Shown piece by piece: positions 47,591-64,000 of a DNA stretch of 64,000 bases; position 1 is the first letter of the stretch; each line of letters begins with the position of its first letter. The stretch is from an uncultured Halieaceae bacterium. GTDB taxonomy: Bacteria > Pseudomonadota > Gammaproteobacteria > Pseudomonadales > Halieaceae. The position numbers were made by a program, and so were the translations under genes. The notes beneath the pieces were generated by a model, which saw nothing but the letters and a program-made list of their open reading frames with translations, was not told the DNA's origin and did no database searches. The stretch lies in the NCBI GenBank assembly GCA_913045375.1, contig CAJWQE010000005.1, positions 1,829 to 65,828 on the forward strand, written 5' to 3'.

Positions 47591-47650
47591 AAGTTGTCCA
47601 TCCCTTCCTGGAACCAGAAACCGTGGTTACGCTATTGAAGGCTGTGGAAA

Positions 47651-47970: not shown

Positions 47971-48705
47971 TCAACTGACCGAAGCGATACTTTCATTAGA
48001 TGCAATGGACGCACCACCTGAGGCATAGCGCTTACGGGTCTCCTCAGACCAGGAATCGATCTCGTCCTGGGCGAAGTCATAGGACAGGCCGCGCTCCACG
48101 GCCGGGCGGGCACGCACCCTGTCTACCCAGGCCACCACGTTGGCATGGCCGGTGATATCGACCTTGCTCCATTTCCAGCCCCGCACCCACGGATACGCGG
48201 CAATGTCGGCGATGGTTAAACCGTCGCCGCAAATATAGTCGCGCCCCTCAAGCTGACGGTTCAGAACGCGCAGCAGGCGCTGCGCCTCGTTGTTGAAGCG
48301 CTGTAAGGGGTGCTCCTTTTGTTCCATGGGAATGTCATCCATATAGCGGGTATAGGAGAGCTTGTTACCAAAGGTGGGGCCAACCCCCGCCGCCTGCCAG
48401 AACAGCCACTGGATAGCGTCCCAGCGGGATTCATCCGTGGGCAACAAGGGAGATGGATATTTCTCCGCCAGGTACAACAGGATGGCGCAGCTTTCCATGA
48501 TGGTCTTGTCGCCATCACGCAAACCTGGAATCTTCTGGTTGGGGCTGACCTCGGTAAAGGCATCGGAAAACTGCTGCCTTTGAAACAGGTCTATGGGTAC
48601 AAGCTTGACTTCCGGAAGCGCTACGCCGGCCTCTTTCAGTTCCTCCAGCATAATGGTGACCTTCCAGCCGTTGGGGGTGGGCGAAGTCCATAATTCCATA
48701 GCCAT
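47971..48705 (-). CDS. Nu-class (YfcG/YghU-like) glutathione S-transferase, copy 2
   Basis: 244 aa, colinear with copy 1 at 40718..41449 along the full length. By eye roughly three quarters of residues are identical. Confidence 0.85.
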   Translation of the reverse strand: MAMELWTSPTPNGWKVTIMLEELKEAGVALPEVKLVPIDLFQRQQFSDAFTEVSPNQKIPGLRDGDKTIMESCAILLYLAEKYPSPLLPTDESRWDAIQWLFWQAAGVGPTFGNKLSYTRYMDDIPMEQKEHPLQRFNNEAQRLLRVLNRQLEGRDYICGDGLTIADIAAYPWVRGWKWSKVDITGHANVVAWVDRVRARPAVERGLSYDFAQDEIDSWSEETRKRYASGGASIASNESIASVS

Positions 48706-48718
48706 GATTCTCTCTCCT

Positions 48719-49240
48719 TTACAGGTTTACCCGCAGTTGTCCCAGGTAGTCCATCTTGCCCAGAGGCACGCCGTGTGCACGCAGCACCGCATAGGTGGTT
48801 GTCGCGTGAAAATAAAAATTGGGCAGGGAAAAAGACAACATGAAGTTGTCGGTGGTGTAGGGTATTTCCATCTCGCCCATCTTGAACAACAAAGGCTTGT
48901 CTGCCAGGGCGTTGATCTCCTCCGGCGTCTCGCCCTGCAGCCCTTCAATAGCCTCTTTAACCAGGCCCTTCAGAGCCTGGTAATCCAGCCCACTCATCCT
49001 CGGCGGCGGAGAGAACTCGCCGGCTTTCAGGCCCGCGATGGCATTCAGGGAGTGGTGCCAGACGGACAGCACCTGAAAACTGAAGGGCGCCATGTCGTCG
49101 CGCAGTTTGTAACGGACAATTTGCTCCAGATCCATATTGCCGGCGGCCGCATATTCTTCGCCCTTGGCCAGCACATTGGCCACGCCACCCAGGATTTGCA
49201 GATAAGAAGCGACGCTCAGGTCGTACAGTGATAAAGACAT
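48719..49240 (-). CDS. DUF1993-family protein
   Basis: 173 aa, MSLSLYDLSVASYLQILGGVANVLAKGEEYA...NFYFHATTTYAVLRAHGVPLGKMDYLG, the characteristic DUF1993 pattern. Confidence 0.8.
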   Translation of the reverse strand: MSLSLYDLSVASYLQILGGVANVLAKGEEYAAAGNMDLEQIVRYKLRDDMAPFSFQVLSVWHHSLNAIAGLKAGEFSPPPRMSGLDYQALKGLVKEAIEGLQGETPEEINALADKPLLFKMGEMEIPYTTDNFMLSFSLPNFYFHATTTYAVLRAHGVPLGKMDYLGQLRVNL

Positions 49241-49268
49241 TTTCTATTCCTCTATCGGTTGTTTTGAC

Positions 49269-49937
49269 TTACAGACCCAGGCTGGCCGCCATGATCTGCA
49301 GCGGCTGCTGCCTCGGTACCAGCTTGTTTCCTGCATAGGCCTTGCCCGGTAATTTGCCCAACTCGGCGGCCAGTTCGACTGCGGCATCGACGGCCTCGCC
49401 CTCTGGAACGAGACGGTCGAGGAAGCCCGCATCGACCGCGCCCACCGGGTCCAAGGTGACTGACTGAGTAACCACTGGCAAAAATCGGGTGGGATTCACC
49501 CGCGCCTTCAGCGGCTCCATCGCCCAGTCTGGCAACACCATTCCCATGGCGGTCTCTATCATGCTGAACTTGTAGGCCCCCTGCTCGCCAATGCGGGTAT
49601 CGCAGGCCAGCAGCCACAGGGCACCGATGGTAAAGGCATGTCCGGTACAGGCAGCCACCAGCGGCTTGCCCGTACCATAGAGCTTATACAGAATTTTGGC
49701 GCCTGCCAGCGTCAGTTCGCCAATCGCCTCCACGTCACCACTGGTCATGGTGGCCAGTTCGAATCCGGCGCAGAAAGCACCCGGGCGCCCGGCAATCACG
49801 ATGGCATCGGCGCTGGCCTCTGCCTCCTCAAGGCCGGCGAGAATTAGCGCTGCCGCTTCTGGCGTAATGGCATTTTTCTTGCCATCGTCAAACTGGATCA
49901 GCGCCACGCCGTCGCGGTTTTCTACCTGTACCTGCAT
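49269..49937 (-). CDS. Crotonase/enoyl-CoA hydratase-isomerase family protein (short, about 220 aa type)
   Basis: 222 aa, DGVALIQFDDGKKNAIT...VIAGRPGAFCAGFEL...PLVAACTGHAFTIGA... Confidence 0.8.
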   Translation of the reverse strand: MQVQVENRDGVALIQFDDGKKNAITPEAAALILAGLEEAEASADAIVIAGRPGAFCAGFELATMTSGDVEAIGELTLAGAKILYKLYGTGKPLVAACTGHAFTIGALWLLACDTRIGEQGAYKFSMIETAMGMVLPDWAMEPLKARVNPTRFLPVVTQSVTLDPVGAVDAGFLDRLVPEGEAVDAAVELAAELGKLPGKAYAGNKLVPRQQPLQIMAASLGL

Positions 49938-49940
49938 TGT

Positions 49941-50537
49941 TTACTCCCCGGTATTCGGTTTTGAAATCATTTGGATTAGCACCTGCACGCGCCGCCGGGC
50001 CTCTGCCCGGCTCAAGCCCGCGCGACTTGCAACCCTGAGTCCGTAAATATTGGTCATGAGATACCCCACCCCTTCCGCTATGCTCACATCTTCGCGGAGG
50101 GTGCCGCTGTCTTGTGCCTCCTGCAGGCAGAGGGATAGTACCTGTTCGAGACCCTTGAACCTGTTTACCAACTGTTGATGCAGTTCGGTATCTACCCCCT
50201 CCATTTCCAGGATACTGTTCACCAGCAGGCAACCCTTGAGGCGATTTTTATCAGACACATCCACCACGGTGATGTGGAGGAATTCACTAATGGCATCCAG
50301 TCCCGCTTTAGTGGTACGAATCCTCTCCCACTGCGCCGCCGACCAGGTGTCATACTTTTCAATCACCTGCGCAAACAGTTCGGGCTTACTACCGAAGGCC
50401 GCATAGAAGCTGCCACTACCAATGTCCATCGCCTTCAACAGCTGACTCATGGAGGTAGCGGTAAAGCCCTGGCGCCAGAAGATGTCACGGGCCGCTCGCA
50501 GTGCTTTGTCGCGATCGATCTGAACAGGTCTTGCCAT
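49941..50537 (-). CDS. TetR/AcrR-family transcriptional regulator
   Basis: HTH DKALRAARDIFWRQGFTATSMSQLLKAMDIGSGSFYAAFGSKPELF. I prefer the ATG at 50537 (MARPVQIDRD...). The track ORF begins 11 codons upstream. Confidence 0.87.
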   Translation of the reverse strand: MARPVQIDRDKALRAARDIFWRQGFTATSMSQLLKAMDIGSGSFYAAFGSKPELFAQVIEKYDTWSAAQWERIRTTKAGLDAISEFLHITVVDVSDKNRLKGCLLVNSILEMEGVDTELHQQLVNRFKGLEQVLSLCLQEAQDSGTLREDVSIAEGVGYLMTNIYGLRVASRAGLSRAEARRRVQVLIQMISKPNTGE

Positions 50538-50573
50538 GGGTTGAGCTTCAACTGCTACGAAGAAGCGCAATTA

Positions 50574-50589
50574 TGGATTGATCATTCCA
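50574..50589. promoter_or_regulatory. Near-perfect 16-bp palindrome, candidate operator of the adjacent TetR
   Basis: TGGATTGA|TCATTCCA (7 of 8 positions complementary), 37 nt upstream of the TetR start at 50537. Confidence 0.35.
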
Positions 50590-50929
50590 CAAATACAAGA
50601 GAATCGCTATAAACACAGATGCCGGCCAAACTTGAATGCAAATCAACAGTCCCACATTATTTGACAACTGCACAAACGGATTTATTAGCCTTTACCAGGT
50701 GCCGGAATTGCGGCCTTCATATAAATCAATCAATTTTGCCAGGTCATCAAGTTAGTCGGATGTTGATAGAATGGTGTCTTCACTATACGCTGAGTTGTAC
50801 TCATCAATTACAGCTGACTGATTGCGACACAATGCCTCTATTTCATCCAGCTCGCCCTCCTCGAAACTGTCAAAGTAGTGCTCATATAGGTAAACCGTAT
50901 CATGTAGATCACGGGCAGCAGTTCGACCA

Positions 50930-50986
50930 TTAAGCGCCCTCAATCAGTTCCTTTTGGATCTCGTTGGCGCCGCCGTAAATTTTTTG
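50930..50986 (-). pseudogene. Extreme C-terminal remnant of an acyl-CoA dehydrogenase gene
   Basis: My translation gives QKIYGGANEIQKELIEGA* (stop at 50930-50932). The IYxGxNEIQ motif is the hallmark ACAD C-terminal helix. No ACAD body lies upstream, because the GPH transporter stop is at 51020. Confidence 0.4.
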
Positions 50987-51019
50987 TGGAGAAAAAGAGC
51001 TTATACTTATCGACTTTTG

Positions 51020-52444
51020 TTAAAGTTGACTTGAGATCGAGCCGTCTAGCTGCTGCCTAATAGCCATGTAACGTTCAGGACTCAAGGAATATTTCGAATA
51101 TACCCAAGCACCCACTAATACAAGAATTGCTATTCCAGGACCATACATCCAGCCAAGTTTTAACATCATATCGTGGCTTACTTCACTTGCAGACTCCACT
51201 CCGTCAAAACCCGCGAAATCTATCATCAACCCCGCCATAAATGTGCCAACACCAAATGTTACTTTCTGTGTGAGCATCATTGCTGAATTTAGTATGCCTT
51301 CCTGCCGCATACCATTTTGTGATGCTAAATCGTCGGCGATATCAGGGACCATTGCTCCGAGGATATTGGCATGGGCAATATAGAAAGATTGAGACAATAC
51401 GACAAAAATGCAGACGACAAGCAATAACTGGTTACTACCGGTTTCTGGAAGAAAGCCGTACAAGTGCAATAGCACTGGTATCGGCCCAATCAAAGCGGTA
51501 ATTATAAGAAAAAGAACAATCGCACGGGTTTTCCCCATAGCCCGAGATACTTTTACAGAAAGCAGAGACGCGAATGGTAGCGCAAACGCAATACAGAGCA
51601 TGAAGATACCCATTTGTTCACTGCTAAATCCGTAATAAAAACTGTTCACATGAATGAGCATTGTGTTGGATATGCCAATCGCTGTTGCTATAACAAGATT
51701 CGCCAGGAGAAAAATCCTAGACGAATCGACCTTCATCAGGCCAATCAAATCACTAAATGCCGAATACCAGGGTCGATGACTTTGTTCGTCACCAATTTGA
51801 TGCAGGTAGGGAATACGTGATTTGCTGCCCAGAATTGCCATGAGCATTCCAACAAATGCCACGGTGATAGCAAATACGCCAGTACTCACATAGCCCGATG
51901 CCAAGTCACCCTGAGCCGTTGCATGGGGTATCAAAACAAACCACGCGACCACTTGAATTAACAGGCCACAAAAAAAACCCAACACTGTGCGATAAACAGC
52001 GATACTGGTTCTTTCATGATAGCTATCACTGAGTTCAGCGCCGAGTGCCATATGGGGTACAGTAAAAAACGTTAATGACGTTCTAACCAGAATCGCCATG
52101 ATTAAATACCACGAGAATAACTGCCACTGTGACAGCTCCGCGGGCGGATTAAATATGGCAAACACACCAAGGCAAAATGGCACAACAGACCACATCATAA
52201 ATGGATGCCGTCTGCCCCACTTTTTCGACTTCCATCTATCAGAGAGATGACCAATAATCGGATCAGAAATACCGTCAGCAATCAGCGCTAAAAGTGCAGC
52301 CAGGCCTGCAAGACTTGCCGAAAGACCAAGAATTTGGCTGTAATAGAAGAACAGAAAGAACTGGAAACAGGCATCTTTTGCTGCCCATGCAGCATAGCCT
52401 GCTCCGTAATAGAACTTTGTTTTTTTACTTAACGTCGACGGCAT
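51020..52444 (-). CDS. GPH/MFS_2-family (glycoside-pentoside-hexuronide type) cation symporter
   Basis: 474 aa, 12-TM-like, KFYYGAGYAAWAAKD..FFLFFYYSQILGLS...ADGISDPIIGHLSDR...GRRHPFM, the typical GPH N-terminal signature. The block is markedly AT-rich. Confidence 0.8.
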   Translation of the reverse strand: MPSTLSKKTKFYYGAGYAAWAAKDACFQFFLFFYYSQILGLSASLAGLAALLALIADGISDPIIGHLSDRWKSKKWGRRHPFMMWSVVPFCLGVFAIFNPPAELSQWQLFSWYLIMAILVRTSLTFFTVPHMALGAELSDSYHERTSIAVYRTVLGFFCGLLIQVVAWFVLIPHATAQGDLASGYVSTGVFAITVAFVGMLMAILGSKSRIPYLHQIGDEQSHRPWYSAFSDLIGLMKVDSSRIFLLANLVIATAIGISNTMLIHVNSFYYGFSSEQMGIFMLCIAFALPFASLLSVKVSRAMGKTRAIVLFLIITALIGPIPVLLHLYGFLPETGSNQLLLVVCIFVVLSQSFYIAHANILGAMVPDIADDLASQNGMRQEGILNSAMMLTQKVTFGVGTFMAGLMIDFAGFDGVESASEVSHDMMLKLGWMYGPGIAILVLVGAWVYSKYSLSPERYMAIRQQLDGSISSQL

Positions 52445-52543: not shown

Positions 52544-53386
52544 TCAGGCGCTGGTACCGTGGTCGCCAAATTTTTCATCGCGGTCGGCAACGGCACTCGC
52601 AACGCCTCCTTCAACGAGCTTTTTGAAGAAACCCTGGGTGGTTTCGGTAAAACAGGCCAGAGCCTGCATTTCCGTGCCCGCACGGATACCCGCACGAATA
52701 CCCATGATGTCCATCTGACGGTGAACACTGCGCTTGCAGATCTGTTGTACATCGGTGGGTATTTTTGTCATGCGCTCTGCTACCTTCAGCACCTCTTCCT
52801 CCAGTACGTCAGGTGCGAATGAGGCATTGGCAAAACCCTGCTGCGCGGCCTGCTTGCCGGTAATACCGTCACCGGTGAGCATCAGGTACATCGCGTTGCG
52901 AAAACCCATCAGCCAGGGTATCGCCTGGTTGTCCGGGGGGCTCAGTGAGCGCACGGGCGGGTAGCCAATGTTGGCATCGTCGGCGACGAACACCAGGTCA
53001 CAGGACTGCGCCAGTTCAAAACCACCCGCCAGGCAGTGCCCGGATACCTGCCCGATCACGGGCTTCGCGAGGTCCCAGATACGGAAACAACCCTCGGTGA
53101 CCTGGCGGGGCCAGGCGCCCAGCCCCTCGGAGGTAAAGAACGGGTAGTTCTCGCTAAACTCCTTTGGCTCGGAGAGGTCGTAACCGGCGGAGAAACACTG
53201 TTCGTTGCCACGGATGATGGTGAGATTGATATCGTCATCGGTATCAACCCGGGTCAGTTCGGTGAACAACTCCCTGCGCAGCTGGTCAGATAGCGCATTG
53301 CGCTTATCGGGCCGGTTCAGGGTAATGCGGTTGACCCGTTCGATGGGGCGATCCACCTTGATGCAGGTATAGTCCTCAATGTTCAT
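52544..53386 (-). CDS. Enoyl-CoA hydratase/crotonase family protein
   Basis: 280 aa, ITLNRPDKRNALS...GNEQCFSAGYDL...GHCLAGGFELAQSCD... Confidence 0.85.
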   Translation of the reverse strand: MNIEDYTCIKVDRPIERVNRITLNRPDKRNALSDQLRRELFTELTRVDTDDDINLTIIRGNEQCFSAGYDLSEPKEFSENYPFFTSEGLGAWPRQVTEGCFRIWDLAKPVIGQVSGHCLAGGFELAQSCDLVFVADDANIGYPPVRSLSPPDNQAIPWLMGFRNAMYLMLTGDGITGKQAAQQGFANASFAPDVLEEEVLKVAERMTKIPTDVQQICKRSVHRQMDIMGIRAGIRAGTEMQALACFTETTQGFFKKLVEGGVASAVADRDEKFGDHGTSA

Positions 53387-53535
53387 TCCTGTTTACTCCC
53401 TTCCTTTAGTTCAACACAATTCCCATCCGGGTCCTGGAGCAGGCAAACGCTCACACCGGTGAGAATTTCGGTTTTCGGCTTCGGCACATTGACGCCTGCG
53501 GCAATTTTCTCCTGCGAACGTCTAGCTTTGGTCAT
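53383..53535 (-). pseudogene. Short ORF that looks like the C-terminal piece of a VOC/glyoxalase-family protein
   Basis: My translation (50 aa) gives MTKARRSQEKIAAGVNVPKPKTEILTGVSVCLLQDPDGNCVELKEGSKQE*. The motif L.DPDGN.VEL is the typical VOC C-terminal strand. Its TGA overlaps the ATG of the downstream crotonase (ATGA). It is too short to form a full VOC domain. Confidence 0.45.
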
Positions 53536-53625: not shown

Positions 53626-55719
53626 TTAAAAGGGGGAAACACCCCAGCTTATAAAGAATAGACTCAAGCAAACTGCCGCGAGTCCATTGGCCAGATAGCC
53701 CAACAGCAAATGAGCAGCGATCCCGGCTTTCATGCGAACCTGAATAATCTGGTAGATAACGATTAAACCCATCACCCCGGCGATATAAACCAATATCAGG
53801 CCGTATCTGGCCCACGGCACAAGTCCGAATAAGATCAGAGTTTCCGTCACGTTTATCGTCGCCGCTGCAGCCGCCGCAAAAACAGCCAGACCGGTAAACG
53901 CTGTTACGCTCGCCAACCAACTCAAAGGCCTGGCACTCGCCACATACACCGGATTTTTCTCACTGGTTCGATTGATGAACCAGTTGATCGAATGAACAAA
54001 CAGGCCAATAACAAGCAGTAAAACCGAAACGCCTACCCAAACGATAGGTTTGGCCAGTTTATTTTTATCCTCTGTGGCTATCAGAGATAACTGTGCAAAT
54101 AAGTCGGTAGTCATCAACGGCGCGATAAATTCGGGCGCTTTCACTTGCTCAACACAGGACAAGTCAGGCTGGCGCTGAGGCGAGTCATAAAACAGGTTTA
54201 GCATGTCACCGGCGCACTCAACAGATCGTGTCGGTCCGTGTCCGGCGTAAGGAAACTCCACGTAAGTTCCGTTCTTAAAGCCGGGCAATATCTCCCTGGC
54301 TAGCGGCGGCGGCGTAACTGGATCCATATCCCCCGCGATTATCAAGCTTGGGATTGAAGTCTCGGTCATCGCATATTCAGCCGCATCTCGAGGCGCCACC
54401 TGCATTTCACGGCAAATATCGCTGATGGCCTGATATGACGCTTCACTACCATACACCGGGGCGAGCACTTCAAAGTCTCTGAGGTCAGCCAGTCCAGATG
54501 CACGCTGCGAATCTCGCCCTCCGTCCAGACACAACACCGCGTCATGCATTCCGCGACTAAAGGTGAAGAAATTACTTGGCGCTTGCAAAATCAATTTAAA
54601 GAAGGATTCGTCACGTTGCCGAATTTTTTCTGACCAGCCATGAATAATCGCCGGTAACGCCGGAAAATTAGAGTCTTCGTACAGCAGCATAAAGGGCAAT
54701 CCCGCAGCTTCATACTCGAACAGGCGAGCCTGACCGTCCGGATAATGCTCAACGTCCTTTACTTCAACGCTGATGGGAGAATTAGTGACACTTTGGGCGA
54801 CAGCGCGCACTTGCGCCCCTAAATCCGGATAATATTCAGCGCAGTTTTCATCCTGTTGACACGCCTCATCCAACTTTTTGAGGTCTCTGTCATACCATTT
54901 GGCCATTCGCCAGTACAAGGCATCATCGCGTGCAAATAGCGGCATAACGGAGTCCAGCGCCACGGCTTTGATTCCCTGGGGATCTTGCTTCAGGTAAGCC
55001 TGACCTAATATCGTCCCATAGGAGAGACCCCATACATTCCATGACTCAAATCCCAGCGCCATCCGCAAGGCCTGAACATCTCGCGCATTTTCGATGGTGT
55101 TATAACCGCTTAGGTCAACCCCGGCCCGAGCCGCGTTGTGGAAACACTGCCTGATGGCATCATTCTTCTGTGCGAGCTTTTCCGCATAGGTCTTGGGGCT
55201 CTTTATGCTCAACTGTCTCGTGCTGTAAAAAGGACAAAAGTCATCAGAATAGCCGATACCGCGTTGCTCAAGAATGTATAAATCACGATGTTTGATCAGG
55301 CCGTGGTCTTTAAAACGCTTCACATAGGTGGTGACCTTAGCACCGGGACCGCCGGTTAAATAAATCACCGGATCATCGCGTTTGCCCGCCTTGGGTTGGG
55401 TCCACTTGACTTCAGCATCGTTAGCTTCATCCACTTTCGCGTTGATTTTGACAAAGTGAAGCTCGATAAAACGCGAATCCGCCTTTTCCCGGTTCTCAGG
55501 CACCTCCAGCAGACCGCATTCGATATCCCCTGGCTCATAGTCCACTTCATTTTTAAAGGGACAGACAATGCTGTCGATTCGTAACGAATCACGGGCGAAC
55601 AGATCAGGCTGAACCTTCAAACCGGATTGGTCGACTTCAGATAGCTGCGCAAGCGCGGGTAAAGCCAGGCAGGTTAAAGATAAGGCTAATATAAAATTGC
55701 TGAGCGTTTTGCGCTGCAT
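53626..55719 (-). CDS. Secreted alpha/beta-hydrolase (S33 / TAP-like tripeptidyl-aminopeptidase type) fused to a C-terminal polytopic membrane domain
   Basis: 697 aa. Signal peptide MQRKTLSNFILALSLTCLALPALA. Nucleophile elbow WGLSYGT. TAP-like C-terminal region PSLIIAGDMDPVTPP...YAGHGP. The last 200 or so aa contain 4-5 hydrophobic helices (PIVWVGVSVLLLVIGLFV..., LSWLASVTAFTGLAVFAAAAAA..., GLILVYIAGVMGLIVIYQII..., LLLGYLANGLAAVCLSLFFI...). Confidence 0.78.
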   Translation of the reverse strand: MQRKTLSNFILALSLTCLALPALAQLSEVDQSGLKVQPDLFARDSLRIDSIVCPFKNEVDYEPGDIECGLLEVPENREKADSRFIELHFVKINAKVDEANDAEVKWTQPKAGKRDDPVIYLTGGPGAKVTTYVKRFKDHGLIKHRDLYILEQRGIGYSDDFCPFYSTRQLSIKSPKTYAEKLAQKNDAIRQCFHNAARAGVDLSGYNTIENARDVQALRMALGFESWNVWGLSYGTILGQAYLKQDPQGIKAVALDSVMPLFARDDALYWRMAKWYDRDLKKLDEACQQDENCAEYYPDLGAQVRAVAQSVTNSPISVEVKDVEHYPDGQARLFEYEAAGLPFMLLYEDSNFPALPAIIHGWSEKIRQRDESFFKLILQAPSNFFTFSRGMHDAVLCLDGGRDSQRASGLADLRDFEVLAPVYGSEASYQAISDICREMQVAPRDAAEYAMTETSIPSLIIAGDMDPVTPPPLAREILPGFKNGTYVEFPYAGHGPTRSVECAGDMLNLFYDSPQRQPDLSCVEQVKAPEFIAPLMTTDLFAQLSLIATEDKNKLAKPIVWVGVSVLLLVIGLFVHSINWFINRTSEKNPVYVASARPLSWLASVTAFTGLAVFAAAAAATINVTETLILFGLVPWARYGLILVYIAGVMGLIVIYQIIQVRMKAGIAAHLLLGYLANGLAAVCLSLFFISWGVSPF

Positions 55720-55779
55720 TGATCACGGCCTTTGTTCATGGCGTTTTTTTTGGGTAAAGATAAAGCACGCAAGTAAGCG

Positions 55780-57066
55780 TTACTGGTTCTTGTAGACCAC
55801 TCCATCTTTCATCACGAACTTGACGTCAGTCATCAGCTCGATGTTTTCAAGAGGATTTCCCTCTACGGCAACCAGGTCCGCCAGCTTACCCACCTCAACT
55901 GAACCGAGTTTGTCGGAAATACGCAGCAGGTCGGCAGCGTTCACCGTTGCCGCCTGTATGGCCTCCATCTCCGGCATACCCGCTTCCACCATGTACACAA
56001 ATTCATGGCTGCTCAGGGCATGGGGAAACACGCCGTTGTCTGCACCAAACGCTATTTTGACGCCTGCTTTGTACGCCTTGGCGAAGGTACCCTGTATCTT
56101 CGGTCCAATCTCTCTCGCCTTGGGCTGGATCATGGGAGGGTAGAAATCGGCATGCTTGGCCACCCACTTGCCAGCAGAAATCGTCGGCACATAGTAGGTG
56201 CCCTTTTTCTTCATCAGTTTCATGATCTCCGGGGTCATGTAGGTACCGTGCTCTACCGAGTGAACCCCGGCTTCCACCGCGCGCTTCATGCCTTCCGCAC
56301 CGTGGGCATGCACCGCCACAACAAAGTTGTAGTCGTTAGCCGCTTGCATGATGGCCTCGAGTTCATCCGCCATGAACTGCGTGTTATCACCGCTCCTGGC
56401 CAGGCTCCCGACACCGCCGGTGACTGTCAGCTTAATCACATCGGAACCATCTTTGTAACGTTGTCGAACCGCCTGGCGTGCCTCATAGGGACCATTCACC
56501 ACACCCTCGGTGGGCCCCGGCGGTCCCATTAGGTGGGAGAGAGTGCGGTTCAAACCGTTGGTCTGGTCGGCGTGACCACCAGTAGTAGCAATCGCAGTCC
56601 CCGCCGCATAGATGCGAGGCCCCGGTATGTAGCCCGCATTCACCGCATCACGCAGATTCAGCGTGGTTATGCCACCCAGGTTACGCACTGTAGTAAAACC
56701 GGCCATCAGCACATCTTCCACGTAGTCCGTTGCCCGCAGGGCCCGATCTGCCTCGTCCCGGAGGAAGGCGTCAGTAAGCGCTTCGGCCGGATTCGGGTTT
56801 ATATCCAGGTGGGTGTGCATATCCATCAGACCCGGCATCAGAGTGTGGTTTTTCAGGTCGATGACTTCCTGACCGTCCGTGGCCGCTACATAGCCCTTCT
56901 CTATTCCGACAATCTGCTGATCCTTAACGAGCACGGACATCTGTTCCATGGCCTTGCTGCTGTTGCCATCGATCAGTCGGCCCGCATGGATCACGTAGTC
57001 GCCGGCGACAGCCGACACAGAGCCAAGTAGTGCCAGAGCGGCAAACACTATTGAGATTAATTTCAT
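55780..57066 (-). CDS. Periplasmic metal-dependent amidohydrolase (COG1228-type, dipeptidase/prolidase-like)
   Basis: 428 aa. Signal peptide [21 protein letters not shown]. The metal-binding HxH is in [10 protein letters not shown], with further motifs VAVHAHG and FGADNG. Confidence 0.85.
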
Positions 57067-57122
57067 TTACCTTATCTCCTTGGTTATCGTTGCAGGCTTC
57101 GCTATCGCTGCTTACCCGCCTA

Positions 57123-58889
57123 CTACTGGTTCTCGATCCAGCGGTCAATTTTCGCATCCAGTACGCTCAGCGGCAGTGAGCCACCTTCCAGTACTACCAC
57201 GTGGAATTCACGCAGGTCGAATTTGTCGCCCAGGGCCTGCTCAGCGCGCCGGCGCAGTTCCTTGATCTTGAGTTCACCGAGCTTGTAGGACGTGGCCTGG
57301 CCCGGATAGGTGATGTAACGATCTACCTCGGAAACCACGTTCTGCTCTGTGAGACCGGTGTTCGCCATCATGTAATCGATGGCTTGCTGGCGGGTCCAGC
57401 CCTTGGCATGCATACCGGTGTCCACCACCAGGCGCACGGCGCGCCATACTCCGTAGATCAGGCGGCCAAAGCGCTCGTAGGGTGTGGTGTAAACACCCAT
57501 CTCCTCACCCAGCCACTCGGAGTACAGCCCCCAGCCTTCACCGTAGGCGTGGAAGTAATACTCCCGGCGCCACTGGGGCAGGCTCTGGTTTTCCTGTTGA
57601 AAGGATATTTGCAGGTGATGACCTGGAACCCCCTCGTGCAGGGACAGGCCCACCAATTCGTACAGGGGGCGGCTGCTCAGGTCGTAGGTGTTAACGAAAT
57701 ACTGGCCAGCGCGGGTGCCATCACTGGCTCCCGGCTGGTAGTAAGCGGTGGCCGTCCTGGGTGCGGTTTGAGCTGGTACTGGCTTGATCCCATAGGGGTT
57801 ACTCGGCAGGCGGCTGAAGTAGCCGGGCAGTTTGCCATCGATGCTCTTCGCTACCCAGGCCACGTGGTTCAGATAGTCCTGTTCATTGGTCTTGTAGAAC
57901 TGTTCATCGCTGCGCAGGAATTCCAGGAACGCGGCAAAGTCACCGTCGAACGCCACTTCCTCGATAATCTGGCGCATTTCGGCCTGTATACGCTCCACTT
58001 CAGACAAGCCCAGGGCATGCACCGTATCGGCGTCAGTATCCAGACTGGTGTAGTAGCGCAGCAACTGGTCGTAGGCAGCGCGACCACCGGGCAGTGAGCT
58101 GAGCCCAGCCTCCTTTCTGCAGGCCGACATATAGGTATCAGCGAACCAAGCCGCATAACGCTTGTAGGCGGGGTTAATTTGCTTATGGATCAATGTGGCC
58201 GCTTCGGTCCGCAACTCCGCCTGCACTTCTGCCGGGATCGACTCCGGCAATCGCGCGAAGGGGATTATGAACGCGCTCTTTAGCGGATCATCGGCGACAT
58301 AAGCCGAGATAGTAGCGTCATAGCCCTGCAGGGAGTCACAGGGCTGGGTGTATCCGGCAGCTATACCCTCTTCCAACAGGGCAATATTCTGGTCGGCGAA
58401 GCGGCCTACCTGGGACATGCGCGAGAGCAGGTCACGATAATCCTCTTCATTGAAGTAAGGCTGCGCCAGGAATAGCCCCACCAGGCCGCTATGCCAACCC
58501 GTTAAGGTGTTGAAGGCAAAGAAACGGCTATTGTGATCCAGGTTGGCCCGCTCATTGCGCAGCATCCAATTGTAGGCCTCGAAGTGTTCCCGGTTCTCCG
58601 GTGAGAGTTTGTTAACACGCACCTTGGCCAGGGCCTCGATATAGTCGTCCAGGCGTTTCACCTGCGCGGCACGGGCCTCCGGGCCAAAATCATCCAGCAC
58701 ATCTCTCGGGCCCTGGGCACCGAAGCCCGCTGCTATAAGCGGATAGGCTTCCACGTACTCCGCCCAGTAGTCCGCCATTTGCTGTTCGAGGCGACGGTCA
58801 TCCCCACCAGCCTGTGCTTCTGCGCCCAGGATAAGAAGGAAAGACAGCGCCCAATGGGCAGCACCGGTGATTTTTCCAGCTTGTTTCAT
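57123..58889 (-). CDS. DUF885-family protein (putative periplasmic metallohydrolase)
   Basis: 588 aa with a signal peptide and the family-typical HEGVPGHHLQ motif. Confidence 0.83.
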   Translation of the reverse strand: MKQAGKITGAAHWALSFLLILGAEAQAGGDDRRLEQQMADYWAEYVEAYPLIAAGFGAQGPRDVLDDFGPEARAAQVKRLDDYIEALAKVRVNKLSPENREHFEAYNWMLRNERANLDHNSRFFAFNTLTGWHSGLVGLFLAQPYFNEEDYRDLLSRMSQVGRFADQNIALLEEGIAAGYTQPCDSLQGYDATISAYVADDPLKSAFIIPFARLPESIPAEVQAELRTEAATLIHKQINPAYKRYAAWFADTYMSACRKEAGLSSLPGGRAAYDQLLRYYTSLDTDADTVHALGLSEVERIQAEMRQIIEEVAFDGDFAAFLEFLRSDEQFYKTNEQDYLNHVAWVAKSIDGKLPGYFSRLPSNPYGIKPVPAQTAPRTATAYYQPGASDGTRAGQYFVNTYDLSSRPLYELVGLSLHEGVPGHHLQISFQQENQSLPQWRREYYFHAYGEGWGLYSEWLGEEMGVYTTPYERFGRLIYGVWRAVRLVVDTGMHAKGWTRQQAIDYMMANTGLTEQNVVSEVDRYITYPGQATSYKLGELKIKELRRRAEQALGDKFDLREFHVVVLEGGSLPLSVLDAKIDRWIENQ

Positions 58890-58906
58890 CGGTCTATCTT
58901 CGTTGT

Positions 58907-60547
58907 TTACAGTTCCCCACTGACGGCAGCCCTACCAGCTTTATCCGCCTCGAGCAGGGCACCGGCAACATCCGGCCTGACAGGCAATTCCGCCCGCTCA
59001 GTTTCACTCAGGCTATTCCACCAGTCGCGGACTCTGCCAGCATCGTGCGGCACCACGCTCTCGCTATGTTCCGCGAACTGCGCTGCCGGGAAGTTGTTAT
59101 CCAAACCGCGAACGTGCTTGTCGAAGAAGCCGCGTACGAAATCATTTATAACGGCCATCATGGTAGGCCCATCTATTCCACCAAAGATGACCGATTTGAC
59201 CGGCCCCCGGACAGCCATGATCATGTCCGTCACCCCAAAGTGCTGTACGTCCTTGACCCGCAGCCGATAGATGTCGTCCCGAGTTCCGGCAACCGAGTGC
59301 GCCTCGTAGGACAGGTCGGCATAGCCGTACTCGCTGTAATCCCAGCCTTGATCGCCGTCAGTCAGTTTATTCATCACCGGCCAGTCATGCATAAACATCA
59401 ACAGGGGCTTGTCCACGCTGCGATTGAACAGCTGCGGGTCAAAGTTGCCGCCATCCAGGTTCACCGCCGCGGCGCAATCTGCGTCCTGCCAGCACACTGA
59501 GACCGCAGTAGATCCGCCAAATGACATGCCGGTGTGGCCTACCCGGATAAAATCGCCGGCGGCGGCGATCTCTGCCATAGCAGGATCAACCCGACCCGCC
59601 ATAAGCTCGTCCTTCACGAACAGGCGATCCTCAATCCAGACGCCCCGACTGCGGTGGAACCGGGTATTGTCGCGAGTGTACCGTTCAAGCATGGCTATCA
59701 TACCGGCGCGCCGCTCCGCCATTGTCGGCCCGTTCACCTTATCGACAGCCTTGCCGCCTGGGAGCGCCGACTCCAAGGCCTCTTCCCACAGTTTGTCATC
59801 TTCGGGAATCGGGTCGCCATTGGGAAACACACCTTCGGGTCCGTCGTAGGTATGAGCCACCGAGTAGACGATGTAGCCATGGCTGGCCAACTCTTCCATC
59901 AGCCCCGTATTCTGGGACAAACGCCCCTGGTAGCCATGACTGAAGAAAACGACGGGTTGCATTGAAGCTCCGCTTAGCAGCGGTGCATTCTCGTAAGAGT
60001 GGGTGTCGACGTGCCGAAAATGAGTAAAGACCTGTGAAGTCGCCGCTTCGGCGTCGGTGAAATAGGGCCGTGGTTCCAGCCCCGCCACCGAGCCCGCGGG
60101 ATACCAGACGCGCACCAGCAGGCGCCGCGGTTCGTCCACGGCGGCAGCCATCACCCCCTTGCGAGAGGTATCGGTGAGCTCGAAATCGCGCACACCAACC
60201 GCGTGCTCGCCGGAAGGCGCTGGCATCTCGAAGTTGGGAAAAGTCCAGTATCCGAACGCCGCAATCGCCGTCAACAGCGAGAACAGCACACCGCTAGCCC
60301 AGGGTCTTCCGCTGAGCACCCTGGAACCGCGCAATCGCCGAATCACCAGGGCCAGCAGCAGCACCAGGGCGACTACCAGCGCAATCATCGCCGTGCCTCG
60401 ATAGTTGGCGTAGCCCGCTATCGAGGCAAGCAGTGCCACCGATGCGCTAGCCCATAGCAGTGCATCTCGCCTGGCCATGCCAACACGGAACCAGCAGATG
60501 CAGAAGCCCAGCAGTGCGAGGATAGAAACCATGTCCGTCAAAAGCAC
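58907..60547 (-). CDS. Membrane-anchored alpha/beta-hydrolase (PAF-acetylhydrolase / lipase-like) with an N-terminal 4-TM domain
   Basis: 546 aa. There are four hydrophobic helices in the first 110 or so aa, with Arg-rich loops after helices 1 and 3 (RVGMARRD, RRLRGSRVLSGRP). By the positive-inside rule this places the catalytic domain in the periplasm. Hydrolase body: PVVFFSHGYQG... and nucleophile elbow GHTGMSFGG. Confidence 0.72.
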   Translation of the reverse strand: MLLTDMVSILALLGFCICWFRVGMARRDALLWASASVALLASIAGYANYRGTAMIALVVALVLLLALVIRRLRGSRVLSGRPWASGVLFSLLTAIAAFGYWTFPNFEMPAPSGEHAVGVRDFELTDTSRKGVMAAAVDEPRRLLVRVWYPAGSVAGLEPRPYFTDAEAATSQVFTHFRHVDTHSYENAPLLSGASMQPVVFFSHGYQGRLSQNTGLMEELASHGYIVYSVAHTYDGPEGVFPNGDPIPEDDKLWEEALESALPGGKAVDKVNGPTMAERRAGMIAMLERYTRDNTRFHRSRGVWIEDRLFVKDELMAGRVDPAMAEIAAAGDFIRVGHTGMSFGGSTAVSVCWQDADCAAAVNLDGGNFDPQLFNRSVDKPLLMFMHDWPVMNKLTDGDQGWDYSEYGYADLSYEAHSVAGTRDDIYRLRVKDVQHFGVTDMIMAVRGPVKSVIFGGIDGPTMMAVINDFVRGFFDKHVRGLDNNFPAAQFAEHSESVVPHDAGRVRDWWNSLSETERAELPVRPDVAGALLEADKAGRAAVSGEL

Positions 60548-60586
60548 GGTCGTCGGACCTTCGATGATTCAAACGCTACGGCTTAC

Positions 60587-63088
60587 TTATTCAAAATCGT
60601 AGGTAATCTCGATGCCGATTTGGCGCGGACGATCAACAATGCCCGTGACTTCGGTTCCGACACTGCTGCGTCTGACAAATCCGTCCTCATCCAGTAAGTT
60701 ATTACCGAACAGGAACACACCGAAGTCCTTGTAATATCCGCCAATACGTCCTCGCAACAGATTGCGAGCATCCCCCGGTATCGGATCCCCATCGCCAGCC
60801 GCGAACTGCTCGCCAATATAGCTGTAGGTCAGGTTGGCAATGCCCTGCCAGTTATCACCCATACTCCAGGAATAGTTTGTAGAGAGTGCGAAGGTCGAGT
60901 CTGGCTGACCCGGCAGGTCACTGCCTTCCTCAATACCCGTAGCGGCCTCCAGAGCAGGATCAACACGGGTCAGTTCGCCGTCGGCAAGGTTGGCAACCAG
61001 GGTGAAGTTAAGACCGTCAATCGACGCCGGGGCATATTTCACAGACAGGTCTACACCGTATATCTCTGCGTCACCGAACGTATAGACCAGAGGGAATTCG
61101 AGGAAAGTCACGTTCTGGCGGAAGTCTTGCCAGTCCATATAATAGGCTGCCGTTTCCAGCTGCAACTGCCCGTCAAGCAAGGTGAACTTGCCACCAATCT
61201 CGTAGCTCCACAGCTCATCGGAATCAACCGCCACTTCAGAGGGCAATCCGCCCAGGGTGACATGAAGCTCACTCACCGGGGGAGAGTTAAGCTCACCGCT
61301 GCGGAAACCCTTGACGACATTCAGGTAGTAATTGGACGTATCATTGGGAAACCAGGCCAGGTTGAAGCGCGGGTTCCAACTGTCAAAGCGCTGGTCATTG
61401 ATCTCGAAAGTGCCGGTAGCTTCCTCAGCGCTGCGATCGTCTTCGAAATAACGCAGCCCTACCAACGGAATCAGGCGCCCGTCCATCAGGCTGTAAGAGA
61501 TTTCGCCAAACACCGAAATACTCTCAGACTTGGTGTTAAGGGTCGTATCCGGAAGCAACAATTGGGCGTTGGAAGCCGTGGTGGATTCGAGATCCTCATC
61601 GGCGTAAAACACACCCGCTATCCATTGCAGATCACTGTCCCCCTGGGAAACCAGGCGAAACTCGTTGTTTATGGTTTCCGTATTGCCGGAGCCGGCAACG
61701 CTCAGGATGCCATCAGGGGGGCCAAAAGGAGGGGGTATGGGAACCGCAAGGTTGATAACCGTGTTTGGTGTCGCATCGATATAGGTCGTCGTGTTGGTCA
61801 GCGCCGCCCAACCCAGGTCGTAGTTAAAAGTGAGGTAGAAAAAGTCGTATTCATTCTCGTTGACGTCGTCTTGCCCATAAAAGTTCACCACTGGATCACG
61901 GTCATAGACGATATTGCCGTATTCCTGATCGATCTCATTATGAATGGCGGTAAACCGGACATCGAGATCATCGGATGCCGCCCAAAGCAGGCTGGCGCGG
62001 TAGGAAGTGATATCCCCAGGCTCCACATTTTCGTTACCCAGGGCGTCCTCTGTCCAACCTCCTACATCTTCGAAACTACCCACAACTCGCAACGCCAGTT
62101 TGTCTTCAACTAAGGGCACGCTCACCGCAGCGTCGGTGTAATAGCTGTCATCGCCGCCCTTGGTGTCGTAATAGCCTGCTCTCACGTGAGCTTCGACGTT
62201 TTCGAGGTTGGGCTTCTCAGTAATAAAGCGCACCGTGCCGCCCATGGAGCTCGCCCCCCACAAGGTGCTCTGGGGTCCCCGGAGCACTTCGACCCTGCTC
62301 ATATCGAAGGTACGCGCTATGGGGGCAAAATCTTCGCCGGGGAAATAGGCCGCGTCATCAACGTAATAACTCACCGTGGGATCACTAAAGCCTTGATCCA
62401 CACCACGAATACTGTACTGCCGGCGACCAAGGCTGTTCTCGTTAGTCTGAATGGCGCCGGGCACCAGTTCCATGACCTGTTGCAGGTCCCGGATACTCGC
62501 CCTGTTCAGGGACTCGCCGGATAGAGCCTGCATGGAAAATGGTATTTCCATCACTGCCTGTTCACGCTTCTGGGCGGTTACGATGACCTCTTCCAGTATT
62601 CCTGCACTGTCCTGCGCCACTGCAACACCTGTGGTCGCACTTCCTACAACCAGGGCCGACAATAAGCGACCAAAGAATGATGTTTTCATTTTCCCCTGTC
62701 CTCGTTCCTTATTCGTTGAAACTACACTTAGCTCGCCATCATCGATCGAGCTTGCAAGACTGGTTCCCTCAAGGAGCCGGCTGAGGCCTTCAGTCAACGT
62801 ATACCGACCCTTGAGCCGGTTGGTCGTGACTTCAGCTGCCTCGTCAAACGGGAACACCAGGGTGACACCCGCCTGAGTCGCAAACTCGATCAATGATCGA
62901 TCTGCGGTCTGTCGGGAAACATCGAACTCTACCTGTTGCTCAAGATCTTGTGGGGCGGCTTGCACCTGCAAACAGGCCAGCGCCAACCCGGTTGTTATGA
63001 CGATCTCAAGCAGTACCCGAAAGACGCAGGGACCACTCAGTCGTTGATTAGACGGGCCGGCAGACATTTTCCCCCAGTGGAATTTCAA
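60587..63088 (-). CDS. TonB-dependent transducer (STN signalling domain plus plug plus beta-barrel)
   Basis: 833 aa. N-terminal signal peptide and STN domain (FDVSRQTADRSLIEFATQAGVTLVF...RLKGRYTLTEGLSRLLEGTSL). Plug begins ILEEVIVTAQKRE. The C-terminus ends in the typical aromatic residue (ITYDFE). The listed start is TTG. The first ATG is at 63067, preceded by GGGGG. For the internal signal-peptide-like segment see findings. Confidence 0.9.
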   Translation of the reverse strand: MKFHWGKMSAGPSNQRLSGPCVFRVLLEIVITTGLALACLQVQAAPQDLEQQVEFDVSRQTADRSLIEFATQAGVTLVFPFDEAAEVTTNRLKGRYTLTEGLSRLLEGTSLASSIDDGELSVVSTNKERGQGKMKTSFFGRLLSALVVGSATTGVAVAQDSAGILEEVIVTAQKREQAVMEIPFSMQALSGESLNRASIRDLQQVMELVPGAIQTNENSLGRRQYSIRGVDQGFSDPTVSYYVDDAAYFPGEDFAPIARTFDMSRVEVLRGPQSTLWGASSMGGTVRFITEKPNLENVEAHVRAGYYDTKGGDDSYYTDAAVSVPLVEDKLALRVVGSFEDVGGWTEDALGNENVEPGDITSYRASLLWAASDDLDVRFTAIHNEIDQEYGNIVYDRDPVVNFYGQDDVNENEYDFFYLTFNYDLGWAALTNTTTYIDATPNTVINLAVPIPPPFGPPDGILSVAGSGNTETINNEFRLVSQGDSDLQWIAGVFYADEDLESTTASNAQLLLPDTTLNTKSESISVFGEISYSLMDGRLIPLVGLRYFEDDRSAEEATGTFEINDQRFDSWNPRFNLAWFPNDTSNYYLNVVKGFRSGELNSPPVSELHVTLGGLPSEVAVDSDELWSYEIGGKFTLLDGQLQLETAAYYMDWQDFRQNVTFLEFPLVYTFGDAEIYGVDLSVKYAPASIDGLNFTLVANLADGELTRVDPALEAATGIEEGSDLPGQPDSTFALSTNYSWSMGDNWQGIANLTYSYIGEQFAAGDGDPIPGDARNLLRGRIGGYYKDFGVFLFGNNLLDEDGFVRRSSVGTEVTGIVDRPRQIGIEITYDFE

Positions 63089-63091
63089 TGT

Positions 63092-64000
63092 TTACAGCAC
63101 GCTGCTTGAGGGCTTCAGGGAAAGCGCGATGGTCTCTTCATCAATTCGCCTGTCAACCACATCAAAGTTGGCACGTAGGGAGGCAAGAAAGCCCTCGACA
63201 TCACCGGCTTTGAACACACCGGCCACCCGCATTGCCTTGAGGTCCTCAGACTGAACCACAAACTCAAGGTGGGTGTAGCGCCCTACTTCGCGAACGGCTT
63301 CATCCAGGGAACTGCCACGAAATACCAGCATGCCTTCGCGCCAGGCCAGCTTGACCTCGATATCGCCATCAGCGATGGCCTCCACCTCCGGGACCTCGTC
63401 GAGGACGATGCGCTCACCCTGGGCGAGCTCGGTGTTGCCTGAGTCCTGCTCTGATACGGTGAAAGATTCAGCGGGCAATTCCACCCTCACACGCCCCTCG
63501 GTAACGATCAGCTCAACCTCCCCGCTCTCATCAATGCGCACGTTGAAGGACGTGCCAAGGGCTTCAAAGACTTTATCGCCAACCAACACACGCAGCGGAC
63601 GTTGTGGATCGTGAGCCACATCGATATGGATCTCGCCCTGCTCCAGAGTCAGCAAACGGTACTCAGCCGTCATACGCACCTGTAGCTGCGTCTCAGTGTT
63701 GAGCTGTACCACGCTGCCATCGTTCAGGTGAATGGTGGATTGATCGCCTACCGGGGTCGTATAGATCGCCTGGTCAACCACCTCACTCACCTCAGCCACC
63801 TGGGGCTCATGGGCCGGCTGCACTGAAGCATCGTTCACCAGGACTGCCAAGCCAGCCACCAACGCCAGGGCAAGGGAGGCCGCCAACGCCACAGGACGCC
63901 AGGAAGATGGTTTCTTTTCGTGGGGCATCAGGTCCGCCAGGGAATGCAGTGCACCCAGCATGTCCCAGAGGCGCGCGCACTCTTCCAGTTCACGTTCATT
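63092..64000 (-). CDS. FecR-family transmembrane anti-sigma factor / sensor (N-terminus outside window)
   Basis: A TM segment (WRPVALAASLALALVAGLAVLV) is followed by a FecR domain (TPVGDQSTIHLNDGSVVQLNTETQL...GEIHIDVAHDPQRPLRVLVGDKVFEALGTSFNV) and a C-terminal domain (LAWREGMLVFRGSSLDEAVREVGRYT). The reading frame stays open upstream of the listed ATG to the window edge (NERELEECARLWD-MLGAL...). Confidence 0.87.
   Translation of the reverse strand, partial: NERELEECARLWDMLGALHSLADLMPHEKKPSSWRPVALAASLALALVAGLAVLVNDASVQPAHEPQVAEVSEVVDQAIYTTPVGDQSTIHLNDGSVVQLNTETQLQVRMTAEYRLLTLEQGEIHIDVAHDPQRPLRVLVGDKVFEALGTSFNVRIDESGEVELIVTEGRVRVELPAESFTVSEQDSGNTELAQGERIVLDEVPEVEAIADGDIEVKLAWREGMLVFRGSSLDEAVREVGRYTHLEFVVQSEDLKAMRVAGVFKAGDVEGFLASLRANFDVVDRRIDEETIALSLKPSSSVL

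Follow-up and report, generated by a model that had tools for sequence, protein, structure and literature searches.

The DNA analyzed here, referred to as the window, is a stretch of 64,000 nucleotides (nt) from an uncultured Halieaceae (OM60/NOR5) bacterium, and it ends in a locus where genes for a FecR-type protein and a TonB-dependent transducer (TBDT) are directly followed by genes for four hydrolases. Six co-directional open reading frames (ORFs) occupy positions 53626-64000 and encode, in the order of transcription, a FecR-type anti-sigma factor, a TBDT, a hydrolase with the carboxylesterase fold that resembles platelet-activating factor acetylhydrolase (PAF-AH), a DUF885 protein, an amidohydrolase, and an S33-type serine hydrolase. 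The gaps between them are, in the same order, 3 nt (24 nt when counted from the alternative TBDT start codon, ATG 63067), 39, 17, 56, and 60 nt. Coordinates refer to the numbering of the window throughout, and all genes listed for the locus are on the minus strand. This layout, including the gap sizes, had been proposed in a first-pass annotation of the same DNA and is borne out, as are its domain assignments, every one of which was upheld by profile searches with Pfam and NCBIfam. Export and membrane features were judged by eye and from hydropathy, supplemented for the esterase-like protein by the helices of an AlphaFold2 (AF2) model. No convincing terminators were found between the genes, in a scan that itself performed at chance level, as did a simple sigma-70 promoter scan of the locus. 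Overall, the genes give the impression of a single transcription unit or regulon.

The fecR ORF (63092..>64000; Pfam FecR, 69.8 bits, plus FecR_C) runs out of the window, which leaves its N-terminal ~47 codons outside; on the sister contigs L001-L003, the full-length protein has 347-349 residues. Hydropathy indicates that the product of the partial ORF spans the membrane once, at residues 34-61, and the NCBIfam FecR equivalog model scores 87 bits against a cut-off of 385. The first-pass annotation had predicted a gene for an extracytoplasmic-function (ECF) sigma factor beyond the edge of the window, and L001-L003 indeed carry one there, encoding 183 residues and overlapping fecR by 4 nt. Its product contains the Sigma70_r2 and r4_2 domains and scores 82.6 bits with TIGR02937 (cut-off 42.9). 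The TBDT gene (60587..63088; TTG start, with ATG 63067 as the alternative) encodes a signal peptide, an STN-like domain (~62729..62863), a linker, a TonB box (EEVIVTA, from 62593), a plug, and a barrel. The STN match is below the Pfam gathering score (21.2 bits, E 2.5e-4), but we accept it because the N-terminal extension aligns with the homologous extensions of relatives, in 9 of 23 of which the domain is clearly detected (best E 2.5e-10); the earlier identification of an STN-domain transducer is thereby upheld. All scores of the receptor against curated NCBIfam models are far below the cut-offs, for example, 105 bits against 223.5 for TonB-siderophor and 46 against 1100 for FecA. Two hallmarks of a FecIRA-type system are present, namely an ECF sigma gene next to fecR and an STN-extended receptor.

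The first of the hydrolase genes (58907..60547; Pfam PAF-AH_p_II) encodes a protein whose AF2 model (pLDDT 91) begins with four helices at residues 3-20, 27-47, 53-72, and 83-102, in agreement with the four-helix membrane anchor previously assigned to a PAF-AH- or lipase-like hydrolase. Loops 1 and 3 are rich in arginine, which by the positive-inside rule would place the catalytic domain in the periplasm, and the enzyme is predicted to be anchored in the inner membrane facing that compartment. Foldseek ranks a Streptomyces feruloyl esterase (5yae) highest, followed by human Lp-PLA2/PAF-AH and then PETases, and the catalytic residues are invariant (S342, the nucleophile of the GMSFG motif; D365/D388; and H436). 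Most relatives of this esterase (P0002-P0005, P0012, P0017, P0025, and others) carry a C-terminal cyclophilin-type peptidyl-prolyl isomerase (PPIase) domain (PF00160), including the closest non-self relatives at 64-79% identity. The window copy is without this domain, and either lost it or never had one.

The DUF885 gene (57123..58889; Pfam DUF885, 569 bits) had been annotated as encoding an HExxH-type protein with a signal peptide. The family stands, as does, by eye, the signal peptide, but the motif reads HExxxxHH rather than the canonical HExxH: the sequence HEGVPGHH at residue 418 is invariant, and so is a downstream glutamate, E451. After other DUF885 structures, Foldseek matches the AF2 model (pLDDT 93) to ACE, ACE2, and the M3 peptidase Dcp. 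The matching DUF885 entries in the PDB (3o0y, 3iuk, and 3u24) are all uncharacterized; the family is placed in the Pfam clan Peptidase_MA (PMC12572635). Judging from the model and the motif, the protein is a putative exported zinc oligopeptidase or carboxypeptidase. The next gene (55780..57066; Amidohydro_1, 172 bits) is confirmed as a COG1228-type amidohydrolase, with a signal peptide recognized by eye. The HxH and other metal-ligand motifs are intact, and the best PDB matches (9kov, 9l6p, 8ihq, and 2qs8; E 1e-134 to 1e-144) are ~55-60% identical over the full length; this level of identity is seen with ochratoxin-A (N-acyl-Phe) amidohydrolases and with a 'Xaa-Pro dipeptidase' from structural genomics. 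The arginine carboxypeptidase Cc2672 (1.8e-67) is more distant, as are the prolidases (PMC9430628), and the NCBIfam Xaa-Pro dipeptidase model yields 376 bits against a cut-off of 500. On these similarities, we assign this putatively exported protein to the ADH3/LlADH/2qs8 subgroup, with predicted N-acyl-amino-acid hydrolase, carboxypeptidase, or dipeptidase chemistry. The last of the six genes (53626..55719; Abhydrolase_1 plus the TAP-like Abhydrolase_4) encodes an S33/TAP-like protein for which the signal peptide and the C-terminal membrane domain described earlier are borne out, the latter as a multi-helix region (~residues 553-697 by hydropathy). The nucleophile lies in a GLSYG motif, and the PDB matches are Hip1/CaeA, at 2e-8, and proline iminopeptidases. 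The set is thus predicted to comprise a single ester hydrolase along with three enzymes that cleave amide or peptide bonds, all facing the periplasm.

Past the S33 gene, a 239-nt gap that contains a 50-codon ORF (53389..53535) leads to a gene for a crotonase/enoyl-CoA hydratase (ECH; 52544..53386; ECH_1, 121 bits), the start of which the short ORF overlaps by 4 nt. Next comes a gene for an inner-membrane transporter of the MFS_2 (GPH) family (51020..52444; 240 bits), two genes downstream of the S33 gene. With VCLLQDPDGNCVELKE, the short ORF includes what resembles the C-terminal strand of a glyoxalase/VOC-family protein, and it probably represents the remnant of a gene. On the long-read contig L001 (11348..13460), the S33 gene is split into ORFs of 482 and 197 residues and the ECH gene into ORFs of 158 and 121 residues, probably as a result of sequencing frameshifts rather than real pseudogenization, and neither gene is interrupted in the window or in L002-L006. 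The first-pass annotation had stated that the locus is without a periplasmic binding protein, an ABC importer, and a reductase, and none of these was found in 51020-64000 or within 10 kb on L001-L003. It overlooked, however, the MFS_2 gene, which shares the regulatory motif described below and is a candidate inner-membrane importer for the locus. No glycoside hydrolase, lyase, or SusD domain was detected in any of the eight gene products scanned with Pfam.

A 29-nt motif, CTGGGGG-N16-CGTCTA, occurs in exactly three copies in the locus, all on the gene strand. The first lies beyond the window on L001-L003, 33 nt upstream of the sigma factor ATG. The second (P2; 63049..63077, minus strand; CTGGGGGAAAATGTCTGCCGGCCCGTCTA), a candidate ECF-dependent promoter, is located at the fecR/TBDT junction just past the fecR stop codon, with the TBDT ATG 63067 inside its spacer. 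The third (P3; 53550..53578, minus strand; CTGGGGGGAATTTCGTCCCCATCCGTCTA) is found in the gap past the S33 gene, directly ahead of the VOC-like remnant and the ECH gene. The pattern CTGGGGGN{14,19}CGTCTA matches twice in the window compared to 0.00 expected from 100 shuffles, and among 181 fetched loci the motif is seen only in L001-L006, where it occupies homologous positions; it is absent from the other 175. There is no copy between the TBDT gene and the hydrolase genes. The geometry resembles that of an ECF promoter, with a CGTC core and with 16 nt separating the conserved blocks. In L091, a divergent sigma-FecR-TBDT locus, the corresponding two places are occupied by an analogous pair with a different -35 half, GTCACCCAAA-N13-CGTCTA, and an acidobacterial locus (L039) has a near-identical motif, ATGGGGGAA...CGTCT(A/T), upstream of both the sigma factor and the TBDT; a CGTCTA-type motif was looked for in L094, and none was found. 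We also considered that the G-run of P2 might merely be the ribosome-binding site of ATG 63067, given that GGGGAAAATG also precedes M134 within the TBDT, and rejected this because the spacing to CGTCTA is identical at the other two sites.

Together, the three sites suggest sigma-dependent promoters of a single autoregulated ECF regulon. Read in this way, they imply positive autoregulation of the sigma factor and a regulon that also holds MFS_2 and, probably, ECH along with the TBDT and the hydrolases. A search for a Fur box over the 200 nt that precede the sigma gene, a check that the first-pass annotation had proposed, found nothing above background, with the best site matching the 19-nt consensus at 10/19 positions.

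Relatives of the locus were examined through its individual genes. The loci on sister contigs were reached using the amidohydrolase as an anchor, and gene callers had chosen other TBDT starts there; a profile scan of contigs with the TBDT alignment returned only TBDTs of at most 32% identity, which served as background and for a survey of FecR loci. TBDT relatives drop from 91% straight to 51% identity with none in between, and the nearest relatives outside the clade are 51% (TBDT), 79% (esterase), and 88% (DUF885) identical. At 42-48% identity, the TBDT relatives are followed by different hydrolases, and a sigma/FecR pair is present in some cases only. Orthologous-clade TBDTs precede beta-lactamase-family hydrolases in L091 and L092, the latter with a 32%-identical MFS_2 gene nearby, and a different PAF-AH-family gene in L094, where PepSY_TM lies 7 kb downstream; in L095, an alkylsulfatase-like gene precedes the TBDT relative. 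A non-orthologous TBDT in L096 is followed by a 64%-identical PAF-AH-like esterase with a PPIase domain and then by a COG1228 amidohydrolase. Esterase homologues of ~45-50% identity occur in varied and often peptidase-rich contexts. Among the hydrolase-rich operons that contain DUF885 orthologues but no TBDT are L178, with an esterase, PAF-AH, DUF885, esterase, amidohydrolase, M19, esterase, DAO, and two beta-lactamase-family genes, and L177, with S9, an amidohydrolase, two DUF885 genes, GGT, M19, DAO, OCD, and SNF. What recurs, at the family level only, is the company of TBDTs, PAF-AH-like esterases, DUF885 proteins, COG1228 amidohydrolases, beta-lactamase-family hydrolases, and peptidases, in pairs or trios as in L094, L096, and L178. 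Composition is likewise uneven, with GC 0.505 and GC3 (GC at third codon positions) 0.55 for the S33 gene and GC 0.445 and GC3 0.43 for the MFS_2 gene, compared to GC3 0.66-0.70 for their neighbors. The presence of homologues in other contexts and the mosaic composition indicate that the six-gene arrangement is a recent, lineage-specific mosaic.

Two of these loci show further features. The Tara contig L177 (DUF885 88% identical) has a 104-codon fragment at 17642..17962, beside the SNF transporter, that matches the N-terminal part of the window amidohydrolase at 75% identity and represents either an orthologue remnant or an assembly artefact. L094, a 22-kb JGI contig (1..22571), is a dense array of transducer-hydrolase modules: it holds three TBDTs, two of them STN-extended with a sigma/FecR pair between these two, interleaved with genes for an amino-acid permease, PALP, SDR, Abhydrolase_1, beta-lactamase-family and PAF-AH-family proteins, and two carboxylesterases, and then PepSY_TM and Opp/Dpp-type permeases.

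The reading that we favor, with moderate confidence, is that the locus serves the lineage-specific, substrate-inducible uptake and periplasmic hydrolysis of peptides or acylated peptides. An organic ligand would bind the STN-bearing transducer, and the signal would pass to FecR and release the ECF sigma factor, which would then drive the three CTGGGGG-N16-CGTCTA promoters in front of its own operon, the TBDT-hydrolase genes, and the ECH-MFS_2 unit. The ligand, most probably an oligopeptide or an acylated or esterified peptide of the lipopeptide, depsipeptide, or N-acyl amino acid type, would be pulled into the periplasm. There it would be dismantled by the anchored carboxylesterase-fold enzyme, the ACE/M3-like DUF885 protein, the amidohydrolase of N-acyl-amino-acid or carboxypeptidase type, and the anchored, aminopeptidase-like S33 enzyme. 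The products could cross the inner membrane with MFS_2 as the candidate carrier, and an acyl moiety could feed into the flanking CoA-dependent enzymes. In this scheme, the order of the genes, their domains and folds, the three copies of the motif, and the restriction to one lineage are direct observations, and the course of signaling, the co-transcription, the location in the periplasm, and the class of substrate are inferred. Several findings fit a peptidic substrate, namely the ACE/M3-like fold of DUF885, the ~60% identity of the amidohydrolase to enzymes that hydrolyze N-acyl-Phe (ochratoxin), and the abundance of M19, GGT, S9, DAO, and SNF genes around DUF885 orthologues. A peptide- or lipopeptide-utilization locus was one of the two hypotheses of the first-pass annotation, and it fits the enzymes and is the best available; a conserved six-gene system is not supported.

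Indeed, a number of observations weigh against this interpretation. The block occurs only in near-identical Halieaceae metagenome-assembled genomes (MAGs; identity at least 91%), so that a lack of co-conservation, which the first-pass annotation had named as grounds for abandoning the idea, is half realized. DUF885 orthologues of 64-88% identity sit in hydrolase-rich operons with no TBDT within 10 kb, and none of 43 long metagenome loci has partner hydrolases near DUF885 homologues of 33-52% identity. The S33 and MFS_2 genes are compositional outliers, which suggests that they were acquired separately and probably recently. At the enzyme level, a natural substrate is not defined for any of the four hydrolase families, literature searches yielded nothing useful on DUF885 function and no demonstrated activity, and the esterase relatives carry a cyclophilin domain for which the scheme does not account. 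Finally, the overlap of the junction motif with the start codon of the TBDT fits poorly with a simple promoter.

The same enzymes could instead act on a hydrophobic ester or amide lipid, such as an aminolipid, a lysolipid, or another acyl ester, with the peptidase-like members serving as N-acyl-amino-acid deacylases, an account that we consider unlikely. It draws on the lipase/PAF-AH/cutinase fold of the esterase, the membrane anchoring of two of the four hydrolases, the cleavage of N-acyl-Phe by the amidohydrolase subgroup, and the ECH gene counted in the regulon. The surroundings point the same way: the locus lies amid genes for thiolase, MaoC, SDR, acyl-CoA dehydrogenase, ECH, and TetR proteins, and relatives in the TBDT clade are found beside beta-lactamase-family esterase-like genes, carboxylesterases, PhyH, and the alkylsulfatase-like gene. 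However, the ACE/M3-like fold of DUF885 is typical for oligopeptide processing, the relatives of the S33/TAP protein are aminopeptidases, DUF885 orthologue neighborhoods are dominated by M19, GGT, S9, DAO, OCD, and SNF, and the fusion of cyclophilin domains to homologues of the esterase is suggestive of Xaa-Pro bonds. In view of the flanking thiolase, MaoC, SnoaL, and LigB genes, a substrate of the steroid, bile-salt, or aminolipid type was also considered; there is no direct evidence for it, and it is kept only within the lipid account.

Whether the transducer and the hydrolases belong together at all is a separate matter, because a sigma/FecR/TBDT cassette might simply have come to lie beside an unrelated periplasmic hydrolase operon without any functional coupling. 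The restriction of the block to one clade, the different phylogenetic neighborhood of each gene (illustrated by the nearest non-clade identities of 51%, 79%, and 88%), and the mosaic composition would all be expected from such a juxtaposition. We nevertheless find it improbable, given the tight gaps of 39, 17, 56, and 60 nt with no motif copy between the TBDT and the hydrolases, the independent recurrence of TBDT-esterase (L094) and TBDT-esterase-amidohydrolase (L096) adjacency, and the many unrelated loci in which hydrolases directly follow transducers. Least probable, in our estimate, is the second hypothesis of the first-pass annotation, according to which the system takes up a xenosiderophore, for example, an acylated peptidic one, and releases its iron in the periplasm by hydrolysis. 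The FecI/FecR/transducer architecture is classically linked to iron (PMC1790865), the best NCBIfam match of the TBDT is the siderophore-receptor subfamily, an esterase and amidases could cleave an amphiphilic peptidic siderophore, and PepSY_TM is found downstream of the orthologous-clade TBDT in L094. Against this, the Fur-box search gave only background, the receptor stays under every curated siderophore threshold (105 bits where 223.5 are required), and a reductase, a binding protein, and an ABC importer are missing from the locus; moreover, the neighbors of orthologous-clade TBDTs are not iron genes but serine hydrolases, PhyH, the alkylsulfatase-like gene, and MFS_2. Since the sigma factor shares the motif of its apparent targets, autoregulation is indicated rather than control by Fur, and this, together with the missing Fur box and the low receptor scores, disfavors the xenosiderophore idea.

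The transducer gene itself has an unusual feature in the linker between the STN-like domain and the TonB box (residues 134-160; 62611..62689, minus strand). The sequence there, MKTSFFGRLLSALVVGSATTGVAVAQD, amounts to a complete signal-peptide-like segment, it aligns with the true N-terminus of STN-less homologues of 700 residues, and its internal ATG (M134, 62689) is preceded by GGGGAA, which resembles a Shine-Dalgarno sequence. A similar linker segment is present in P0124, P0127, and P0137 and absent from P0140, P0143, and P0153. The TBDT of L091, which is 43% identical, likewise has an internal ribosome-binding site, ATG, and signal peptide in the linker. A signal peptide on the long, STN-bearing protein would require one particular start codon, and in the window as well as in L091 the junction motif is situated over or downstream of it, whereas in L039 it is cleanly upstream of the TBDT start codon. 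On a conservative reading, the internal ribosome-binding site, ATG, and signal peptide are a relic of domain fusion. A more elaborate possibility, which we regard as quite unlikely, is that two promoters let the gene give rise to two products. The long, STN-bearing sensor of 833 residues would come from transcripts that read through from the sigma promoter, while the junction promoter would fire past the start codon of the long form, such that translation of the induced transcripts could begin only at M134, and a 700-residue, transport-only TBDT would be co-expressed with the hydrolases. Should this hold true, cell-surface signaling would have a means, not described before, of separating sensing from bulk transport.

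As for the wider surroundings, a housekeeping stretch (hemA, a TPR protein gene, ispE, prs, L25, pth, and ychF) ends near 40258 in the window, and right past it, at ~40700..51000, begins a block for hydrophobic or aromatic acyl-CoA catabolism with genes for GST, TetR, LigB, acyl-CoA dehydrogenase, FAA hydrolase, SnoaL_4, DUF1993, and ECH. On the other side of the locus, past the sigma gene (L001, 1..1917), there are an acyl-CoA dehydrogenase fragment, an SDR gene, a MaoC hydratase pair, and a thiolase gene.

Halieaceae and related marine Gammaproteobacteria possess many abundant TBDTs without neighboring genes for carbohydrate-active enzymes (CAZymes). Francis et al. (2021, PMC8371827) anticipated protein as the target of such Halieaceae TBDTs and remarked that genomic context is rarely of help. 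The locus, together with its related loci, offers a concrete, testable case. Here, a recognizable promoter motif appears to link a transducer to periplasmic enzymes of the esterase and peptidase types, which form a defined set, and to an MFS transporter. In addition, DUF885 proteins and membrane-anchored PAF-AH-like hydrolases, the latter often fused to cyclophilin, share a functional neighborhood, which can guide substrate screens. We rate the overall importance as moderate, because the design principle is already known and the block is restricted to one lineage.

How general this design is became apparent from a survey of seven distant loci, each with a FecR gene next to the gene for an STN-type TBDT. 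Catabolic enzymes are encoded downstream of the TBDT in six of the seven, and five of these have a hydrolase or peptidase: an S9 prolyl-oligopeptidase-family protein (L039), an ABC transporter fused to an M1 peptidase domain (L011), an amidase together with an aldehyde dehydrogenase and an MFS transporter (L020), a PF00756 esterase (L068), and an Amidohydro_3 protein (L078). An aminotransferase and another MFS transporter are found in L086, and L018 has no co-directional ORF directly past the TBDT. Coupling of transducers to catabolic enzymes thus appears to be widespread in environmental bacteria. In the literature, we found no experimentally characterized proteobacterial example of a transducer-peptidase system, and nothing useful under the term peptide or protein utilization locus.

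Among the known systems, the FecIRA type (Fec of E. coli and Fox, Fiu, Fpv, and Hxu of Pseudomonas) has the ECF sigma factor, FecR, the STN transducer, the TonB box, and the order sigma-fecR-receptor in common with the window locus. The latter differs in having neither a Fur box nor iron-handling genes, in a sigma factor that is apparently autoregulated through the motif of its targets, and in a cargo of four hydrolases, ECH, and MFS_2. In Bacteroidetes, polysaccharide utilization loci (PULs) combine ECF-sigma/anti-sigma control with SusC-like transducers, are induced by their substrates, and include the degradative enzymes. They are similar to the window locus in that substrate-induced trans-envelope signaling proceeds via a TonB-dependent transporter beside degradative enzymes; unlike them, the window locus has no SusD and no CAZymes, resides in a proteobacterial host, and encodes esterase- and peptidase-type enzymes. 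Carbohydrate utilization loci containing TBDTs (CUT loci), described for Xanthomonas and aquatic bacteria, unite a TBDT, an inner-membrane transporter, degradative enzymes, and a regulator (Blanvillain 2007, PMC1790865). The same combination is found here in the form of the TBDT, MFS_2, the four hydrolases, and sigma/FecR. CUT loci, however, target carbohydrates under LacI/AraC-type regulators, whereas the window locus has no CAZymes and is under sigma/anti-sigma control; cell-surface signaling outside iron uptake also has a precedent in PrhA (PMC1790865).

Another comparable system is the predicted collagen-utilization cluster of the Colwellia MAG BB5, known from genomic inference, which comprises a TBDT, an MFS transporter, peptidases, and a secreted cyclophilin PPIase (PMC7883544). 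It amounts to a gammaproteobacterial, protein-side PUL with the same TBDT, MFS, and peptidase components, but it also includes an M9 collagenase, proline/hydroxyproline catabolism, and PutR, none of which is present in the window locus, where a secreted endopeptidase is likewise missing. At the level of a single enzyme, the window amidohydrolase is akin, with intact metal motifs and ~55-60% identity over the full length, to the ochratoxin amidohydrolases ADH3 and LlADH and, more distantly, to the COG1228 carboxypeptidases/prolidases (Cc2672 and Sgx9260). ADH3, LlADH, and their kin have been studied in isolation, and the literature found does not describe their natural substrates or a link to TBDTs. 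The first-pass annotation knew of no characterized system with this composition. The gene combination is confined to this lineage, but the general design recurs in six of the seven surveyed loci and has conceptual precedents in CUT loci, in PULs, and in Colwellia. The locus therefore represents a variant, specific to one lineage, of a design that is already known.

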